NCBI RefSeq assembly: GCF_041248615.1
Contig: NZ_CP158426.1
DNA: 64,000 nucleotides
From: Escherichia coli
GTDB lineage: Bacteria > Pseudomonadota > Gammaproteobacteria > Enterobacterales > Enterobacteriaceae
Direction: 5' to 3' (one strand)
This document shows, in pieces, positions 48,980 through 57,747 of this stretch. Within the stretch, counting starts at the first letter, position 1. Every line of letters begins with the position of its first letter. A model generated the notes under the pieces. That model saw nothing but the letters and a program-made list of their open reading frames with translations, was not told the origin of the DNA and did not search any database. Both the position numbers and the translations under genes were made by a program.

Positions 48980-51490
48980 ATGAGCCATCACCACACGCAC
49001 CTGGCGTACCCGTGGAACGCCCCGCTGCCGGTTATTGATCCTGAGACATTCGGCAGAGCATTACCGCAGAAGCCAACCGCATTACAACGGGCAATCCGTG
49101 ACTACCTCACCGAAGACATTCGCACTGAGGCCCGGCTGGATGAAGAAACCGTGGCCTTCCTGACAACCACGGACAAAGGTAAGCAAATTAATTCACACCT
49201 TCACCGGGACGAAGAGCGGCAGATAAGGCTGGATAAGCTGGCACGACACAGACGCGAAAATCCGCCAACGGCGGTATCGGAGGCGATAGCCGAACTTCGC
49301 ACCCTGCCCTCGTTTCTTGCCAGTGTGTTGATCCGTGATCTGGCACGACTGAACCGGAAACAGCAAAGTGCCCGCAGTGAAGGTGTAAAAAACAACAGCG
49401 CATACGTGGCCGATAATTTCGTTCGCCGTGGACTGCGTGCGCGCCTGAAACGTATTGAAAGGGTTAACGACCGCTTTGCAACGCCGGCATTCAAAACCAC
49501 CGTCGTGCGCCATCGCCTTGAAGAACTGCTCACACTGCCGCAACTCACCCGTGACGAAATCCAGCGCATCGCCACACTGACAGCCCAGGCATTCGCCGCA
49601 GAATTTGAACGCATATGTGATGAAGTTCTTGAACGGACAGGCAAGGATAATGACAGCCCGGTTATCTGGCTGCTGGCCTACCAGAAGGTGGCACGCACAG
49701 CCTTAATTCTGGGCATGGTCCCGCCATACTGGCCGGAACTCGAAATCAGGCACAACCGACGCACACCGCCGGACCCTGAACGGGTTCCGGGTGCGGTACT
49801 GCGCATCACCTGCGCGACCTGGTGGAACAACCAGTTACGCCACGTCGCCGATCTCTGGCGGGAGGAGTTACTGCGCGCCGCCGGCAGAGTGTCACGTAAA
49901 CAATCCCCCTATATCAGCCATGAGTCACTACTGGAGTTCCGCGAGAAGCGCCAGCGCACCTGTGACTTTCTCAAAAGCTGGGATATTGAAAACGAAGACG
50001 GCGAGCGCCTGAGTCTGGAGGACGTGTACTGGGCTGGCCTGGGTAATCCACGCAACCGCCGCAATGAAATGATGGTCTGCGTCAGAGGGATGGAGATGGT
50101 GGCCGAATTACGGGCTGACGTCGCATTCTTCATCACAGTAACCACCCCTTCCCGCTTTCACAGCGTGAACGAGAACGGCAGCCTGAACCCGAAATACAAC
50201 GGTGCCACAGTACGAGATGCCAGTGATTATCTGGTTTACGACTTCTTCGCAGCCGTAAGAAAAAAAATAAAAAAAGAGGGGCTGGGCTGGTACGGCGTGC
50301 GAACCGCTGAGCCACACCATGACGGCACGCCACACTGGCATATGCTGGTATTCACTTCCCCGGAGAACGCAGAGCGCATCATCGAAATTATGCGCGAAGC
50401 AGCAATTAAATCAGATCGCCACGAACTGGGGGACGATATTTCACCGCGCTTTAAATGCGAGAAGATAGACCCGGAAAAAGGCACACCGGCAAGCTATATC
50501 GCAACCTATATCGGTAAGAACCTGGACGCCAGCGCTTTCCACAACAATGATCCGAAAACCGGAAAACCTTACGTTGATGAGGAATCCGGGAAAACCATGG
50601 CGGAAACCGTGGAGAACGCCATTGCCTGGGCAAGCCTTCACCGCATCCGTCAGTTCCAGTTTTTCGGCATTCCGCCCCGCCAGGTATGGCGTGAACTCCG
50701 CCGCCTTGCAAGCCAGATGGAGCGCAACCCGGCATCACCGAAGCACCTCGATCATGACGATATTGACGCCATTATGGCTGCCGCAGATGTGGGATGTTTT
50801 GCCACCTACATCATGAAACAGGGTGGTGTGCTCATTCCGCGCAACCAGTATCTGGTCCGCACCGCATACGAAACCGCAGACGAAGCCAACGACTACGGTG
50901 AATTCCCTCAACGTATCTACGGAATCTGCGCCCCGTCGCTCGGAGAGCGGTACACCATATGCACCCATCCGGACGAGTGGAAACTGGTTAAAAAAGAAAC
51001 AACACCAGACAACCGCACGGGCGAGGGTTTTGACCTTCATGGCGACCCCGTCGCCCCTTGGACTCGTGGCAATAACTGTCCCCGGGATGAAAAAACAGAC
51101 AATCACGGACCAGAAAACAGGCAGGACCCCGGACGACTGACGCTTCCCGAAGAGAACCTGGAAAGCTGGCTGAATACGTTAAGCAGGGGCGATCGGAGAA
51201 AACTGCGTAATCAGATTAAAAATCAGCCGTCGGGCGCAAAAACCGGACAAAACGACACCACACCGGCATCTGACACCCCTGTAAGGGTGGGGATTGTCGT
51301 GCCTGCGGATACCGCGACGGACACGCAAATCGCCCGCGAACTTGATGCGCTGGGTGTGCAGTTGCCTGACGCGGCCATCATCTCCGTGCGTAACGGTGCC
51401 CGTGTGCGTCTGGATAACGGGGGAACAGCGTACTGGGATGAGTCAGCCCGTCACATCATCACAGAGCAGCCAGTGGAGGCGGGAGCATGA
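48980..51490 (+). CDS. A: replication initiation endonuclease, P2 gpA-like (rolling-circle)
   Basis: 836 aa ORF in the gene A position; HUH-type GTPHWHMLVF motif. Confidence 0.8.
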   Translation: MSHHHTHLAYPWNAPLPVIDPETFGRALPQKPTALQRAIRDYLTEDIRTEARLDEETVAFLTTTDKGKQINSHLHRDEERQIRLDKLARHRRENPPTAVSEAIAELRTLPSFLASVLIRDLARLNRKQQSARSEGVKNNSAYVADNFVRRGLRARLKRIERVNDRFATPAFKTTVVRHRLEELLTLPQLTRDEIQRIATLTAQAFAAEFERICDEVLERTGKDNDSPVIWLLAYQKVARTALILGMVPPYWPELEIRHNRRTPPDPERVPGAVLRITCATWWNNQLRHVADLWREELLRAAGRVSRKQSPYISHESLLEFREKRQRTCDFLKSWDIENEDGERLSLEDVYWAGLGNPRNRRNEMMVCVRGMEMVAELRADVAFFITVTTPSRFHSVNENGSLNPKYNGATVRDASDYLVYDFFAAVRKKIKKEGLGWYGVRTAEPHHDGTPHWHMLVFTSPENAERIIEIMREAAIKSDRHELGDDISPRFKCEKIDPEKGTPASYIATYIGKNLDASAFHNNDPKTGKPYVDEESGKTMAETVENAIAWASLHRIRQFQFFGIPPRQVWRELRRLASQMERNPASPKHLDHDDIDAIMAAADVGCFATYIMKQGGVLIPRNQYLVRTAYETADEANDYGEFPQRIYGICAPSLGERYTICTHPDEWKLVKKETTPDNRTGEGFDLHGDPVAPWTRGNNCPRDEKTDNHGPENRQDPGRLTLPEENLESWLNTLSRGDRRKLRNQIKNQPSGAKTGQNDTTPASDTPVRVGIVVPADTATDTQIARELDALGVQLPDAAIISVRNGARVRLDNGGTAYWDESARHIITEQPVEAGA

Positions 51491-51918
51491 CGCGATTTTG
51501 CTGCACCATGCAGCGCCCACAGTTTGAGGCCATCATGCGCCAGCGTATGCCGGTGCTGACACTGTTCAGGCCTGCCACAAGGCCACAACCGGGCGACGAG
51601 CTGGAAATCACGATAGTCAGCCCCGATCGCACCACGGAGACCACCATCGCCGACATACTCAACAGGCGGCCGGGCAGCGAGAGCCATAGCTGGACTGTCG
51701 TCATTCGTCCGCGCCGTTCGCCGGAGGAACCGGAGCCGTGCACGCCTGCCGGGAAAATCATGCAGAGATATCACGAAGAGCGGACACGCAGGCACAACGG
51801 CGGACTGGCCAGAACACTGAACACAGTCAATCACAAGGCCGCGCTGGCGCGAATGGTCTTTTCACCACAACGCAATTCATTCGCCAGACCAGCACAGAAC
51901 GGGAGGAAACAACAGTGA
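51487..51918 (+). CDS. hypothetical protein (143 aa), translationally coupled to gene A
   Basis: ATGA overlap with A stop; RBS ggagg upstream. Confidence 0.4.
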   Translation: MTRFCCTMQRPQFEAIMRQRMPVLTLFRPATRPQPGDELEITIVSPDRTTETTIADILNRRPGSESHSWTVVIRPRRSPEEPEPCTPAGKIMQRYHEERTRRHNGGLARTLNTVNHKAALARMVFSPQRNSFARPAQNGRKQQ

Positions 51919-52109
51919 GCAGAATATTACTTTTTCTGCTGTTTTTCGCGCCATTCGCACAATCAGCCACGCCGAACTGCGTAGCGAAAAAGAGCAACAC
52001 CGTTGTCATTGTCCAGTGTGATGACGGCACGGTAACAATCACCGACTCGAGCAAAGGAAGCGTCATTGTCTGCCGTAAAGAGAAACCCTGTCAGCGAACC
52101 GAACTTTGA
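51915..52109 (+). CDS. hypothetical small secreted Cys-containing protein (64 aa, GTG start)
   Basis: GTGA overlap with preceding stop, RBS gggagga 7 nt upstream; signal-peptide-like SRILLFLLFFAPFAQSA then 4 Cys in about 45 residues. Confidence 0.4.
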   Translation: MSRILLFLLFFAPFAQSATPNCVAKKSNTVVIVQCDDGTVTITDSSKGSVIVCRKEKPCQRTEL

Positions 52110-52120
52110 AGGAAAAATAT

Positions 52121-52435
52121 ATGAACAGGAAACAGAAGCAGGAACTGAAAGGCTTCTTACGTAAAGAAATTGCCAGGCTGGAAGATGTGGAATCTCAGTC
52201 ATCAGATATTCCATTCGGAATGGATATCAACGACGCCTGTATGCTCCAGGTATACCGCATAGCTCAGGCTGCACTACAGGCAAAACCGTCAGATGGACTG
52301 GTTAGAGCAGTACGTTTCTATGAACTGGTAAAGCGTGAGAATCCGCCAGTCGAAACCGGAGCATGGCAAGACGCTGTTGACTGGGTGCTCAAAGAGGCTT
52401 GTCAGGTTGTAAACACTGGCATCAAAGGAGACTGA
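52121..52435 (+). CDS. hypothetical protein (104 aa)
   Basis: ORF 52106-52435; start at MNRKQKQ with RBS gaagga; first gene of a coupled three-gene set. Confidence 0.45.
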   Translation: MNRKQKQELKGFLRKEIARLEDVESQSSDIPFGMDINDACMLQVYRIAQAALQAKPSDGLVRAVRFYELVKRENPPVETGAWQDAVDWVLKEACQVVNTGIKGD

Positions 52436-52436
52436 T

Positions 52437-52646
52437 ATGGCTATTGCCGCAAGTTACACCATGCATCTCTATTGTGATTGTCGCCAGTGTACAAATGGTA
52501 AATATCAAACGCCAGACTTCGGTGAATATATCGGTACGTCATGGACTGGCTGTGCAAAAGAGGCGCGTAAGGATGGCTGGCGAATAAGCAAAGACAAAAC
52601 TCGTGCTTTTGCGCCCGGGCATAAAGTTTTGAGGATTAACAAATGA
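52437..52646 (+). CDS. hypothetical small Cys-containing protein (69 aa)
   Basis: Starts 2 nt after previous stop; CDCRQC...C pattern suggests a metal-binding knuckle. Confidence 0.45.
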   Translation: MAIAASYTMHLYCDCRQCTNGKYQTPDFGEYIGTSWTGCAKEARKDGWRISKDKTRAFAPGHKVLRINK

Positions 52647-53044
52647 CCACTATAACCAAAGAGCGACTACTGACAATCAGGCAGTGGCGCGAAACATACG
52701 GACCTGGTAGCAACGTTGTACTGCCAGCCGAAGAAGCGGAAAAACTGGCACGGATTGCTTTGGCATCGCTGGAAGCAAAACCAATAGGTGCTTTCCACAT
52801 TGCAGAACAGCAGGTCGATGGCACAAGTGACTACATCAAGGATGGGGAGTACCGCTTGCTGACATCTGAAGAACAAAAGATAGCCCAACTTTTAGGCGAT
52901 GCATGGAACCTGTATTTTACATTGCCAGTTGAGCATCCAATGGGTAGAGATGAATTTTGCCGGGCAATTCATCATTGCCAAAATATGGTGTTGGCACGCC
53001 CTGCCATCAGGGCGCTGGCCAGTAAGGGGCAAGGCTATAAATAG
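52643..53044 (+). CDS. hypothetical protein (133 aa)
   Basis: ATGA overlap with previous ORF; followed by terminator. Confidence 0.45.
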   Translation: MTTITKERLLTIRQWRETYGPGSNVVLPAEEAEKLARIALASLEAKPIGAFHIAEQQVDGTSDYIKDGEYRLLTSEEQKIAQLLGDAWNLYFTLPVEHPMGRDEFCRAIHHCQNMVLARPAIRALASKGQGYK

Positions 53045-53045
53045 A

Positions 53046-53077
53046 TGAGCAAAACGCCCTCCTCCAGGGCGTTTATT
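53046..53077 (+). terminator. rho-independent terminator after the coupled gene cluster
   Basis: aaacgccctcctccagggcgttt hairpin followed by atttc. Confidence 0.65.
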
Positions 53078-53081
53078 TCAA

Positions 53082-53170
53082 TGCACAATAGTGCACAAAT
53101 TTGCACAATTTTTTTGAACGACTTTTTGCCCTTCCGGCCCGTGTGGCGTCTGGATCCGTCGGGGATCCGT
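53082..53170. promoter_or_regulatory. phased direct repeats (operator or iteron-like)
   Basis: TGCACAA at 53082, 53092 and 53102 (exact 10-bp phasing); GGATCCGT twice at about 53151 and 53163. Confidence 0.45.
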
Positions 53171-53534
53171 GCGTGCACGAAAAAAGGCCTTTTTCTGCGC
53201 GCAGGTGACGGGGGAACAGCCCGCGTTTCAGGGGGTAAATAGCATTCCCTGAACGATGTTGCAGCGACACAACAGAATGGCTGTATTTCTCACGCTGAGC
53301 GTAAAAAAGACGTAAAAGCTTGATTTGATGGGGGTGAAAGATAAGGCCGTCAAAATCGCACTGAGGCAGCGAGAATATGTCGTCAGAGTTGCGGGGTTGC
53401 GTAAGCATCCGCCCGGCGATGATGGCTACAAGGTTGGAGATGTTGTGAAATTATCTGAAGGAATAACCAGCTTGCAGGAGAACCCGGGCAAAGTCAGAAT
53501 AGCGGCAGGCATCAACTCAAAAGAGGATAATGTC

Positions 53535-53634
53535 ATGAGCCACTTTAATGATTTATGCCAGATCAATCGTGAAGCTGAAGAAAAACGCGCTGAGGCAGCT
53601 CAAATTTTGCGGGATGAAGCGGCAAGGCTGATTG
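53535..53634 (+). pseudogene. 5' portion of a phage cargo gene interrupted by the IS21-family element
   Basis: RBS aagagga 7 nt upstream of ATG at 53535; the reading frame continues in phase with ORF at 56221-56625 once the IS is removed. Confidence 0.4.
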
Positions 53635-53829
53635 ATTGCGTATTTTCATGAAAGGAGATCACTCAATAACTTCCATCGAGATCGGGTAATAACATTTGAA
53701 CAGATCGCTGAATAACATCGATGGAGATCACTTTTGACTCATTTTGTTATTCAGTGATCTCCATCAATGTTATTGGAACTTCACAGGTGTGTTGATCTGT
53801 ATCTTTTGCCATTCCGGTAAAGGATACCT

Positions 53830-55371
53830 ATGCCAACAGTTCCAATTTCTATGAGAAAACTTAAAGAAATTCTTAGGCTTAAATACGGTGTTGGACTCAG
53901 CCATCGACAAATTGGTCGTAGTCTTGCAATCTCCCCTTCCGTTGTATCCAGATATGCTAATCGGGCGGCTCAACTTGGCATAAAGCAGTGGCCCTTACCT
54001 ACAGGATGGGATGATACAAAACTAAAACATGCGTTCCTTCAGACCCAGGTTAAGATGAAGAAGCACTCTCTGCCTGACTGGGCTACAGTACACCGGGAAC
54101 TGCGTAATAAATGCGTGACGCTGCAGCTACTCTGGGAAGAATACTGTGAGCGTAATCCAGGCGGTTTTTACAGCTATAACCATTACTGCCGGATGTACCG
54201 TGAATGGCTCAAAACCACTTCACCATCAATGCGTCAGGTACATAAAGCTGGCGAAAAACTTTTCGTTGATTACTGTGGACCTACCGTTGGCGTTACCGAC
54301 CCTGAGACCGGAGAAATAAGAACTGCTCAGGTCATCGTAGCTGTTCTCGGGGCATCAAGTTACACATGGGCAGAGGCCACCTGGTCTCAGCAGCTTGAAG
54401 ACTGGGTGATGAGTCATGTTCGCTGCTTCCAGTGGTTGGGTGGCGTTCCTGAACTTGTTGTTCCGGACAATCTGAAAAGCGCCACATCCAGGGCATGTAA
54501 GTATGATCCTGACGTTAACCCTACCTACCAGCAGATGCTTGAGCATTATAATGTCGCAGTTTTGCCTGCGCGGCCACGTAAACCGAAAGATAAAGCCAAA
54601 GCTGAAGTTGGCGTTCAGGTTGTTGAACGCTGGATCATGGCCCGAATCAGGCATGAGATCTTCTACAGCCTTGCATCGCTTAATCAGCGCATTCGGGAGT
54701 TGCTGGAAAGACTGAATAACAAAATAATGCAGAAGTTGGGTTATTCACGTGCAGAACTCTTCATCCAGCTTGATAAACCCGCACTGAAGCCTCTTCCTGA
54801 AGCCAGTTACAGTTACACCCTGGTGAAGAAAGTCAGAGTTCATGCCGATTACCACGTGGAAATCGACAAACATTACTACTCGGTTCCATGTTCGCTGTTA
54901 GGCCAGCAACTGGAAGCATGGATCTCCGGAGAACTGGTAAGACTCTTCAATCAGGGGCAGGAGGTTGCTGTGCACCCGCGCAAGCGTACTTATGGCTACA
55001 GTACCCGCAACGAGCACATGCCTGAAGCTCATCGACAGCATGCCACCTGGACGCCAGAGCGTCTTCTGGAATGGGCGGGGCACATAGGCAGTGAAACTCA
55101 TAGTTATGTGCTTCATATACTGAACTCTCGTCCACATCCGGAACAAAGCTATCGCTTCTGCCTTGGACTCCTGAACCTTCATAAAAAATACAGTAAAGCC
55201 AGACTTAATGCAGCATGTGCAAGAGCTCTGAAAACAAAGGTATGGCGTCTGTCAGGTATTAAATCGATCCTGGAAAAAGGTCTGGATAAACAACCTGTTC
55301 AGGATCCAAAACCAGATCTGTTATCCACGATGGAACACGAAAACGTACGCGGCAGTGAGTATTACCACTGA
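53830..55371 (+). CDS. istA: IS21-family transposase IstA
   Basis: 513 aa ORF; N-terminal HTH (LSHRQIGRSLAISPSVVSRY) and integrase-like core. Confidence 0.85.
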   Translation: MPTVPISMRKLKEILRLKYGVGLSHRQIGRSLAISPSVVSRYANRAAQLGIKQWPLPTGWDDTKLKHAFLQTQVKMKKHSLPDWATVHRELRNKCVTLQLLWEEYCERNPGGFYSYNHYCRMYREWLKTTSPSMRQVHKAGEKLFVDYCGPTVGVTDPETGEIRTAQVIVAVLGASSYTWAEATWSQQLEDWVMSHVRCFQWLGGVPELVVPDNLKSATSRACKYDPDVNPTYQQMLEHYNVAVLPARPRKPKDKAKAEVGVQVVERWIMARIRHEIFYSLASLNQRIRELLERLNNKIMQKLGYSRAELFIQLDKPALKPLPEASYSYTLVKKVRVHADYHVEIDKHYYSVPCSLLGQQLEAWISGELVRLFNQGQEVAVHPRKRTYGYSTRNEHMPEAHRQHATWTPERLLEWAGHIGSETHSYVLHILNSRPHPEQSYRFCLGLLNLHKKYSKARLNAACARALKTKVWRLSGIKSILEKGLDKQPVQDPKPDLLSTMEHENVRGSEYYH

Positions 55372-55382
55372 TACGGGATCCA

Positions 55383-56132
55383 ATGATGAATCATCTTTAC
55401 GAACAACTGACCGCACTTAAACTCACCGGCTTCCGTGATGCGCTTAAAAAGCAACTTGCTCAGCCGGGCACATACCAGGAGCTGGGCTTCGAAGAACGCC
55501 TGTCATTACTGACAGCAGAAGAACTAACCTGCCGTGAAAACAGGAAGGCAGAGCGTCTGATCAAACATGCACGGTTCAGACTTAATGCTGAGTTATCAAA
55601 GCTGGATTATCGTAACAATAGAGGGCTGGACAGGGCCCTCATCCGTTCACTCAGTCAGGGAAACTGGTTAACCCTGAAACAAAATATTTTACTGACCGGG
55701 GCCACCGGCAGCGGTAAAACGTTCCTGGCATGTGCACTTGGTCATAATGCCTGCCGACAGGGATACAAGGTCTACTATTATCGCCTTAAAGCGCTGATGG
55801 AACAGTGCTATCAGGGGCATGCTGATGGAAGATACAGCAAACTTTTGACCAGGCTGAATAATAGCGATCTGCTGCTTCTGGATGACTGGGGGCTGGAACC
55901 TCTCTCATCAGAACAGCGTAGCGACCTGCTGGAAATAGTGGATCTGATGTACCAACGAGGCTCAATCATCGTAGTGAGCCAGTTGCCGGTGGAAAACTGG
56001 TACAAAATGATCGGAGACTCCACACATGCGGATGCCATCCTAGATCGACTGGTTCATGGCAGTATCAAGATCGAACTTAAAGGAGAATCAATGCGGAAAA
56101 TACAATCTCCGTTGACCGAAGGAGATCAGTGA
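55383..56132 (+). CDS. istB: IS21-family helper ATPase IstB
   Basis: 249 aa ORF with Walker A GATGSGKT and Walker B LLLLDDWG. Confidence 0.85.
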   Translation: MMNHLYEQLTALKLTGFRDALKKQLAQPGTYQELGFEERLSLLTAEELTCRENRKAERLIKHARFRLNAELSKLDYRNNRGLDRALIRSLSQGNWLTLKQNILLTGATGSGKTFLACALGHNACRQGYKVYYYRLKALMEQCYQGHADGRYSKLLTRLNNSDLLLLDDWGLEPLSSEQRSDLLEIVDLMYQRGSIIVVSQLPVENWYKMIGDSTHADAILDRLVHGSIKIELKGESMRKIQSPLTEGDQ

Positions 56133-56220
56133 AGGTAATTTAAAAACGGTTCTGTGAAAGTGACACGAACCGATCTCCATCGATGTTACTCACCGATCTC
56201 CTTCACGGTAATACGCAATT

Positions 56221-56625
56221 GATTTCTATGAAGAATGGCTGGGGCTTCCATCCATGTACTGGGAAGACGATGATGGCGACCTGCACCGCTACGTGGAGAC
56301 AGGCTTGCCATGTAAGACAGCGGCGGATTTTAGTCCTCTTTCAGTCCACAATATCGCATCTGCACCAGACAATATTTTCCGCATGGCCGTGCGAACCTGG
56401 GTTAAGTCATCTGACAGCAGCTACCCGGTAAGCGTGGTTATTGCACTTGAATTATATTCAGTAGATGCGGAACGGGTGTCTCTGAGAGTCCGGGTGGAAG
56501 ACGATATTTCTGTTCGCGTATTTATCAATAAACCCAGCGAAGAAGCCTGGGGCGATGTTGTTATGCACATGAAAAAGCACATCGCTAATCACCTGAAAAA
56601 GCGAGCGCCATCAGCACTTCGTTAA
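56221..56625 (+). pseudogene. 3' portion of the IS-interrupted phage cargo gene
   Basis: Open frame from the IS right junction (DFYEEWLGLPSMYWEDDDGDLHRY...) to stop at 56625, in phase with the upstream fragment. Confidence 0.4.
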
Positions 56626-56691
56626 GCAGAGCTGGAGAGTCGGGGCATAAATTTTTTATGCCCCGGCGAAGCAGCAGACAAGCGAAGCGCG

Positions 56692-57747
56692 TCAGGATAT
56701 GGGCTGGGTGTCTAACAGTGCGTAAGGGTTAAAACGGATCACCTCTTCGCCCAGCCAGTCGTTGACGTGTTTCATTGCTTCCATGACGGGCATCAGTTCG
56801 TTAATGGCAAACACACGGGCTGCCTTCTCCACATCCCCGAATGACCCCTTCTCACCCGGCATGGCCCCCATCAGCTGCGGCGGTACACGGTGCACGGACA
56901 GCACATCATCACGCGATGCAGCCTTGACGTTCATGAACTCATCCTTTGCGGTGATTTGCTGAAACGGCAAAATCTGTACGCCATCCTTACCACCTCCCGC
57001 CGCGTGGATGAGCAGATTTTTAAACGCCCCGCCACCACGCGCGCTTTGCAGTGTTTCCCGCAGTTTTTCCATGCTTTCACGGTCAACCTGCGCCGCACCG
57101 ATGTAGACAATACAGCCCGCGTGTGAGCCGTTATCGTAGTAGAGCTTGCGGAAGATATCGGCGGAATGTGACAGGCTGGCAGACAGCAGGCCGCCCAGGT
57201 AATCCGGCATCCCGTAAATCTCCTGGTTGATATCAGGATTCATCAGGTGGCATATCGTCCCCTCACGAAAGCGGTACTCTTCCTGTCCTTCCTGTATATA
57301 CCACCATGATTTCATATCGCTGCCACGTCGCATGTATTTCGCCAGCGCCCGGCGCAGGGCCAGCGGTTCGCCAAGCATGTTGCGCCGCAGCTCAAGACAG
57401 GCATTACCGAACACAAACCAGTCCATCGCCACCCCGGCGAACTCCTGGCGGGACAGCAGAGGATGTGGAATATAGCAGCCCAGCAGCACATTACGTTTGA
57501 AGCTGAGCGCCGACTGGTGCCAGGACGTCTGGCGGGCAGCCCGTGCCAGTCCGTACCAGTCAACGGGCGTTTCAAACCACCGCCCGTTGTCGGCGCAGTA
57601 CATGCTGTCCAGCAGGTCGGCCCCTGACAGCCGGTAAGGTCCTTCAAACGTGAAGGCACTCAGTGTCGGGTCGCTTCGCAGGGAATCCGCAAGGCTGCCC
57701 TGCGCTGCGCGGGCGTTCGTACGTCGTTGTTTATTTTTTCTGCTCAT
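56692..57747 (-). CDS. Q: phage portal protein, P2 gpQ-like
   Basis: 351 aa ORF, leftward, stop overlapping the downstream terminase gene; position and size match P2 Q. Confidence 0.8.
   Translation of the reverse strand: MSRKNKQRRTNARAAQGSLADSLRSDPTLSAFTFEGPYRLSGADLLDSMYCADNGRWFETPVDWYGLARAARQTSWHQSALSFKRNVLLGCYIPHPLLSRQEFAGVAMDWFVFGNACLELRRNMLGEPLALRRALAKYMRRGSDMKSWWYIQEGQEEYRFREGTICHLMNPDINQEIYGMPDYLGGLLSASLSHSADIFRKLYYDNGSHAGCIVYIGAAQVDRESMEKLRETLQSARGGGAFKNLLIHAAGGGKDGVQILPFQQITAKDEFMNVKAASRDDVLSVHRVPPQLMGAMPGEKGSFGDVEKAARVFAINELMPVMEAMKHVNDWLGEEVIRFNPYALLDTQPIS

Follow-up and report, generated by a model that had tools for sequence, protein, structure and literature searches.

The DNA discussed here, which we term ‘the window’, is a stretch of 64,000 nucleotides (nt) from Escherichia coli (contig NZ_CP158426.1 of assembly GCF_041248615.1). 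It contains a P88-type, P2-like prophage (Xuanwuvirus), in which two short open reading frames (ORFs) flank a copy of ISEc12, an insertion sequence (IS) of the IS21 family. The left-hand ORF reads ...EAARLID up to its junction with the IS at position 53636; on the other side, the flank reads, from position 56221, DFYEEWLGLPSMYWEDDDGDLHRY. We describe evidence that these are the two halves of one accessory gene of the prophage, most likely 167 amino acids (aa) long, split by the insertion of ISEc12. We regard this as the best explanation of the locus as a whole and hold it with high confidence. The individual features are collected in Table 1.

The inserted element and its junctions

The element is a complete ISEc12: all 2,581 bp are 100% identical to those of many copies on plasmids, annotated as ISEc12 in RefSeq. 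Its boundaries are fixed because six other ISEc12 copies, each in unrelated flanks, have the same first and last bases. The terminal letters are TGCGTATT... on the left and ...AATACGCA on the right; read further inwards, the IS starts TGCGTATTTTCATGAAAGGAGATC and finishes ...CCTTCACGGTAATACGCA. These ends form imperfect terminal inverted repeats of the TG...CA kind, and repeats of the GGAGATC type occur just inside both of them. Imperfect inverted ends accompanied by subterminal repeat arrays are the typical pattern of the IS21 family. The genes for the transposase, istA, and for the helper ATPase, istB, are consecutive, and both products score above the NCBIfam cut-offs for IS21; the Prokaryotic Genome Annotation Pipeline (PGAP) starts istB one codon later than the 249-aa call given in Table 1. 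The first-pass annotation, made from the letters of the window, had assigned the element to the IS21 family, and the scores of IstA and IstB, together with the DNA identity to annotated ISEc12, bear this out. In sequence, gene content, TG...CA ends, subterminal arrays and the possession of a short target-site duplication, then, this copy is an ISEc12 like any other, without a single difference in the element itself. Only the site of insertion is particular, and the duplication is 6 bp here.

The flank to the left of the IS ends ...GCA AGG CTG ATT GAT and the flank to the right begins ATT GAT TTC TAT GAA GAA TGG. The duplicated hexamer, ATTGAT, corresponds to codons I33–D34 of the interrupted gene, and the insertion point is the exact boundary between codons D34 and F35. 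When the IS and one copy of ATTGAT (53637–56223) are removed in silico, ...EAARLID is joined to FYEEWLGLPSMYWEDDDGDLHRY... in a single open frame. That the halves share a codon phase once the IS and a short duplication are taken out had been proposed from the first reading, and it holds. The same reading placed the duplication ‘around GATT’, which is correct as far as it goes, and suggested excising 53635–56220, which misses the exact limits of the IS (53637–56217) by 2–3 bp. Target-site duplications of the IS21 family range from 4 to 8 bp, and the 6 bp found here fall within that range. A target-site preference of ISEc12 was considered and rejected: the apparent similarity among the flanks of different copies is an effect of ranking, and on inspection the flanks differ.

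The empty site and the rarity of the insertion

We rebuilt the uninterrupted locus as a query of 1,114 bp (53000–53636 joined to 56224–56700) and compared it with 5,426 complete E. coli genomes. At least 18 complete E. coli chromosomes contain it at 100% identity, undivided and over its whole length, and 29 of the 5,426 genomes cover 80% or more of it. These sequences carry a single copy of the duplicated hexamer at the empty site. At the intact locus of SCU-115 (NZ_CP054368.1, 2830484–2831597), PGAP calls one gene, WP_223942718.1. Because full-length, fully identical and uninterrupted matches exist, the conclusion that the halves belong to one gene does not depend on the one-in-three coincidence of phase. 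The first-pass annotation had held that the IS splits one gene and had recommended a search for uninterrupted alleles; these are found, and the halves prove to be neither unrelated nor in different frames.

RefSeq presents a different picture. It lists the halves as two hypothetical proteins, WP_202888960.1 and WP_223715959.1, and flags neither as a pseudogene, as would be expected of two unrelated small genes that lie on either side of the IS by chance. Against this, the joined sequence is 100% identical to the uninterrupted alleles, one PHROG family and one family of homologs cover both halves, and a single compact fold is predicted for the joined product. On these comparisons we consider the separate-genes explanation already refuted, and leave it practically no weight.

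The allele that carries the IS is rare. The junction occurs in only one of the 5,426 genomes, NZ_LT599825.1 (E. coli NRZ14408). A comparison of 10.5 kb showed this genome and the window to be 100% identical, and we accordingly read NRZ14408 as the strain from which the window derives. In a collection of 15 billion proteins, the exact 123-aa C-terminal fragment is found on approximately 10 contigs, whereas the intact locus, in each of three alternative gene calls, is found on 829 to 1,000 contigs. Since the junction is confined to one genome in 5,426, and the fragment to so few contigs in comparison with the intact form, the insertion is rare and probably recent.

The NRZ14408 chromosome gives five matches to the junction query, these being the left ends of five ISEc12 copies. 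Repeats of this kind can confuse assemblers, and the IS might on that account have been misplaced here during assembly. Misassembly could not, however, create a clean 6-bp duplication around complete IS ends, and the exact 123-aa fragment recurs on the approximately 10 contigs mentioned above. We judge an assembly artefact to be exceedingly improbable.

The extent of the interrupted gene

The true gene most likely encodes 167 aa and runs from ATG 53535 to the stop codon at 56623–56625. PGAP calls the intact form differently, as a protein of 236 aa that begins at ATG 53328 and reads through upstream backbone DNA. The shorter form is favored because of the coverage of the phrog_5091 profile, the lengths and starts of the homologs, the GAGGA ribosome-binding site, and the stop codon upstream in phage P88. 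The profile matches residues 69–235 of the 236-aa call with its positions 1–163 of 164 (E = 3.4e-52). Close homologs, from Salmonella, Edwardsiella, Erwinia and other E. coli (53–87% identity), are 167 aa long in 8 of 10 cases and begin with the motif MSHF in all 10. The in-frame stretch upstream of 53535 is backbone common to P88, where it is closed by a stop codon. With ATG 53535 as the likely start, and not TTG 53325, the IS cuts after codon 34 of 167. The early estimate of a single gene of about 170–240 aa agrees with either call, 167 aa by the family evidence and 236 aa by PGAP.

Were the 236-aa form the real one, its 69 N-terminal residues would be genuine and the IS would cut after residue 103. 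The frame of the E. coli allele is indeed open from 53328, and 236-aa and 197-aa versions of the protein are held in PGAP and UniProt. The N-terminal extension of both versions (53328–53534) is a probable annotation artefact, a read-through of backbone; in P88 the equivalent stretch is annotated as a separate ORF of 42 aa ending in TGA. Besides the profile, the homologs that start at MSHF, the GAGGA 7 nt ahead of ATG 53535 and the TGA in P88, other genera have no gene call over the 380–650 bp upstream. All of this speaks for the 167-aa start, and we think the longer protein unlikely by a wide measure.

In the IS-bearing allele, translation from M1 to D34 would run into the IS as CVFS and end at a stop codon at 53649–53651, giving a stub of 38 aa. 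The first in-frame start codon of the 3' fragment is M45, at 56254, and the product that begins there is the separate 123-aa hypothetical protein of RefSeq.

Table 1. Features of the interrupted locus, in window coordinates
Feature	Position	Strand	Evidence
Gene-free block of conserved backbone, probable cos region	53045–53460	+	85–88% identity to P88-like phages
Ribosome-binding site GAGGA, 7 nt 5' of ATG 53535	53523–53527	+	Read from the sequence
Accessory gene, 5' fragment, codons M1–D34	53535–53636	+	Homolog lengths, MSHF motif, phrog_5091 coverage, translation
Target-site duplication ATTGAT, left copy (codons I33–D34)	53631–53636		Junction read; single copy at the empty site of other genomes
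ISEc12 (IS21 family), complete, 2,581 bp	53637–56217	+	Full-length 100% match to plasmid copies; ends common to six other copies
Left terminal inverted repeat with subterminal array of the GGAGATC type	53637–53774		Repeat families D1, I1, I2, I5, I7
istA, IS21-family transposase, 513 aa	53830–55371	+	NF033546, 310.5 bits (cut-off 160); RefSeq WP_001298859.1
istB, AAA+ helper ATPase, 249 aa	55383–56132	+	NF038214, 270 bits (cut-off 200); RefSeq WP_001016257.1
Right terminal inverted repeat and subterminal repeats	56151–56217		Repeat families D2, I1, I2, I7
Target-site duplication ATTGAT, right copy	56218–56223		Junction read; comparison with other ISEc12 copies
Accessory gene, 3' fragment, codons F35–R167 and stop	56224–56625	+	Translation, homologs, RefSeq
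Terminator hairpin CGGGGCATAAATTTTTTATGCCCCG, bidirectional, separating the accessory gene from the portal gene that converges on it	56641–56665		Read from the sequence; kept in P88 right after the block
Portal gene (gpQ homolog)	56692–57747	-	TIGR01540, 210 bits (cut-off 166); RefSeq annotation

Position in the prophage

From integrase to ogr, the prophage measures approximately 36.2 kb, the IS included. Its genes are arranged in the order integrase, repressor, cox, an 836-aa replication endonuclease (48980–51490), small hypothetical genes, the locus described here, portal, large terminase and capsid. The accessory gene falls, that is, within the interval from the replication endonuclease gene (gpA) to the portal gene (gpQ), according to the RefSeq annotation and, for the portal, to TIGR01540. 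This gpA–gpQ interval is a published cos-proximal hotspot, occupied in P2 by tin and old (Rousset et al. 2022, PMC9122126); in the supplement to that paper, the intact form of the locus appears for NZ_CP033635 as six genes marked ‘hypothetical’.

Compared with P88, the locus contains a single-gene insertion of approximately 585 bp (from about 53461 to 53636, and from 56224 to about 56630). On either side of it the backbone corresponds, including the block of 414 bp upstream, the portal terminator and the portal gene itself. In P88 the 167-aa gene is missing and the block continues straight into the terminator; P88_4B11, too, has the same flanks and no gene. The core of the block is kept upstream of the homologous gene in prophages of Salmonella, of Erwinia and, with variation, of Edwardsiella.

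The block comprises a terminator hairpin and the core just mentioned, which consists of three TGCACAA repeats spaced 10 bp apart (53083–53110) and, some way beyond them, GCGCGCAGGTGACGGGGGAACAGCCC (at about 53197–53222). The linear record of P88_4B11 ends and begins at the equivalent of 53126|53127, just past the TGCACAA repeats. We read the block as the probable cos region in P88-like phages; its repeats would then be an accessory site, perhaps one for terminase. The P2 cos 19-mer is absent when up to three mismatches are allowed, and BLAST finds no significant alignment between the P2 cos region and the block. Counted by hand, and only as a lead, 13 of 19 bases are alike between GGTGACGGGGGAACAGCCC (53204–53222) and the P2 sequence GGCGAGGCGGGGAAAGCAC. 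A search of the literature found no published description of the cos site of P88. The region upstream of the gene, rich in GC and in palindromes, was at one stage considered as a structured RNA (a retron or antitoxin RNA); no RNA family of Rfam matches anywhere in 52400–56800, and we now read it as cos-region DNA.

The arrangement resembles the P2 hotspot in that the gene lies between replication endonuclease and portal, beside a probable cos, and in that the content varies among related prophages. It differs in that P2 has tin and old in the stretch from gpA to cos, both read in the direction of gpA, whereas the gene here is on the portal side of the block and converges with the portal gene. 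The first-pass annotation had assigned the gene to the tin/old position of P2. This is true only broadly, of the gpA–gpQ hotspot; in finer detail the gene is probably between cos and the portal gene, not on the tin/old side, as the block upstream of it and the ends of the P88_4B11 record indicate.

Five small hypothetical genes between the replication endonuclease and the block (51487–53044) make up the cargo on the gpA side, and four of them gave no match to the PADLOC models. One ORF there, of 133 aa (52643–53044), is open along its length, and RefSeq marks its first 135 nt (52643–52777) as a partial pseudogene, ‘missing C-terminus’, which suggests that a recombination boundary of this cargo lies within the ORF. 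In relatives the same slot holds ParM/StbA partition genes or toxin–antitoxin pairs (HigB-like/HTH, YafO, Phd-Fic, HicAB). Farther away in the same prophage, the tape-measure gene (NZ_LT599825.1, 3404313–3406508) is an incomplete pseudogene in RefSeq, next to roughly 1.1 kb that carry no annotation; the prophage may be defective for reasons that have nothing to do with the IS.

The protein family

The 167-aa protein is a member of phrog_5091 along its full length. This family has no annotated function, and membership says nothing about activity. Searches of other kinds gave little more. Pfam has no match to the protein or to an alignment of 47 members; NCBIfam returned nothing meaningful, and PADLOC nothing at all (E up to 0.1–1), for the protein and 10 relatives. 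No match was found by tblastn in 50,697 phage records, or in BFVD; a profile search of the sequences in the PDB gave only noise (E ≥ 0.009), and the confident AlphaFold model has no specific structural relatives. Among 1.84 billion representative proteins, a search by profile yielded 43 relatives, most of them 143–226 aa long, and Foldseek against AFDB50 recovered the same uncharacterized family in Enterobacterales, Pseudomonas and Histophilus.

In Salmonella, Edwardsiella and Erwinia, close homologs always adjoin the portal gene of P2-like prophages, with varied toxin–antitoxin cargo upstream. Among the distant relatives (20–25% identity), one belongs to a lambdoid prophage, where it separates antiterminator Q from the holin and has a DUF2441 gene beside it, and another directly follows ogr in a P2-like prophage and is itself followed by HicAB. 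In Erwinia tracheiphila, two prophage copies that carry the homolog have an IS91-family transposase gene (Y2_Tnp) where the large terminase is truncated or missing; this is another IS-damaged prophage of the same type.

We class the gene as accessory because it is absent from P88, in which the flanks abut, because the phage records contain no tblastn match to it, because its homologs sit at the portal side, and because its relatives occupy moron slots. Classic phage morons (e.g. those between lambda Q and the lysis cassette) are likewise single genes set between backbone blocks, with a terminator behind; they differ from the gene described here in that no promoter of its own was found for the latter.

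The AlphaFold model (predicted local distance difference test, pLDDT, 84.8; predicted template modelling score, pTM, 0.80) consists of a long N-terminal helix (residues 2–40) lying against an antiparallel sheet, and of a second helix at the C terminus. We take the product to be a cytoplasmic, probably non-enzymatic alpha/beta protein. A tentative suggestion is that it binds a protein partner, as a non-enzymatic accessory protein in conflicts between phages or between phage and host, whether in defense, exclusion or counter-defense. More speculative still, and improbable in our own estimation, is the idea that phrog_5091 and its 20–25%-identical relatives in Gammaproteobacteria form an undescribed single-gene phage-conflict module that works through a protein partner and not through catalysis; it would occupy a small, unrecognized slot for insertions between cos and the portal terminator in P88-like phages, and NRZ14408 would be a natural knock-out, perhaps one selected on account of a cost of the gene.

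The effect of the insertion

The events at this locus can be pictured as follows. An intact ISEc12, equipped with IstA and its helper IstB, transposed, probably recently, into an accessory (‘moron’) gene of 167 aa that belongs to a P88-like prophage (Xuanwuvirus, Peduoviridae) of E. coli NRZ14408. Landing between D34 and F35, and duplicating 6 bp in the process, it reduced the gene to a 38-aa stub and a remainder with neither promoter nor start, and so almost certainly to a null allele. The position of the IS is inside the predicted N-terminal helix. We infer that the split gene is null because the stub is so short, and because the remainder lacks a promoter and start of its own and has lost nearly the whole of that helix.

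The ORF from M45 is still open, and the right ends of IS21-family elements can provide a –35 box for hybrid promoters. The 123-aa C-terminal fragment might, for instance from an outward promoter of this kind, be expressed and keep some activity, or acquire a changed one, in which case the insertion would not be null. We looked for a promoter-like site reading out of the right end of the IS and found none. The fragment, moreover, would lack residues 1–44, among them L32, Y36, L40 and L42, which are conserved in the family, and with them nearly all of the long helix that the model places against the sheet. We consider an active fragment highly unlikely, and a null allele remains the interpretation that we prefer.

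Several points tell against the account as a whole. The duplication of 6 bp is not of the commonest length for ISEc12: of the six other copies, four show 5 bp, one shows 7 bp and one lacks a duplication. The lengths of 5 and 7 bp, like that of 6 bp, lie within the family range of 4–8 bp. A search upstream of the gene gave no convincing sigma-70 promoter, and no member of the family has a known function, Pfam, NCBIfam, PADLOC and BFVD all being blank. The location of the gene on the portal side of cos is deduced, the P2 19-mer being absent. Lastly, all of the evidence is sequence, and it is from sequence that we deduce both that the function was lost and that the insertion is recent.

Implications

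As a biological event, this is an ordinary IS knock-out of a known kind: a well-known, multicopy IS has entered an uncharacterized accessory gene of a prophage in a single strain. Its consequences lie first in annotation. Where RefSeq has two hypothetical proteins and, for the intact locus, a protein of 236 aa, the evidence points to one gene of 167 aa, disrupted in NRZ14408. For P88-like phages, the block that contains the TGCACAA repeats makes a good candidate cos region. NRZ14408, for its part, would provide a natural null allele of an uncharacterized accessory gene that is widespread in P2-like prophages, and the intact form, present in approximately 29 of the 5,426 complete E. coli genomes, may be a starting point for testing this family in phage defense.

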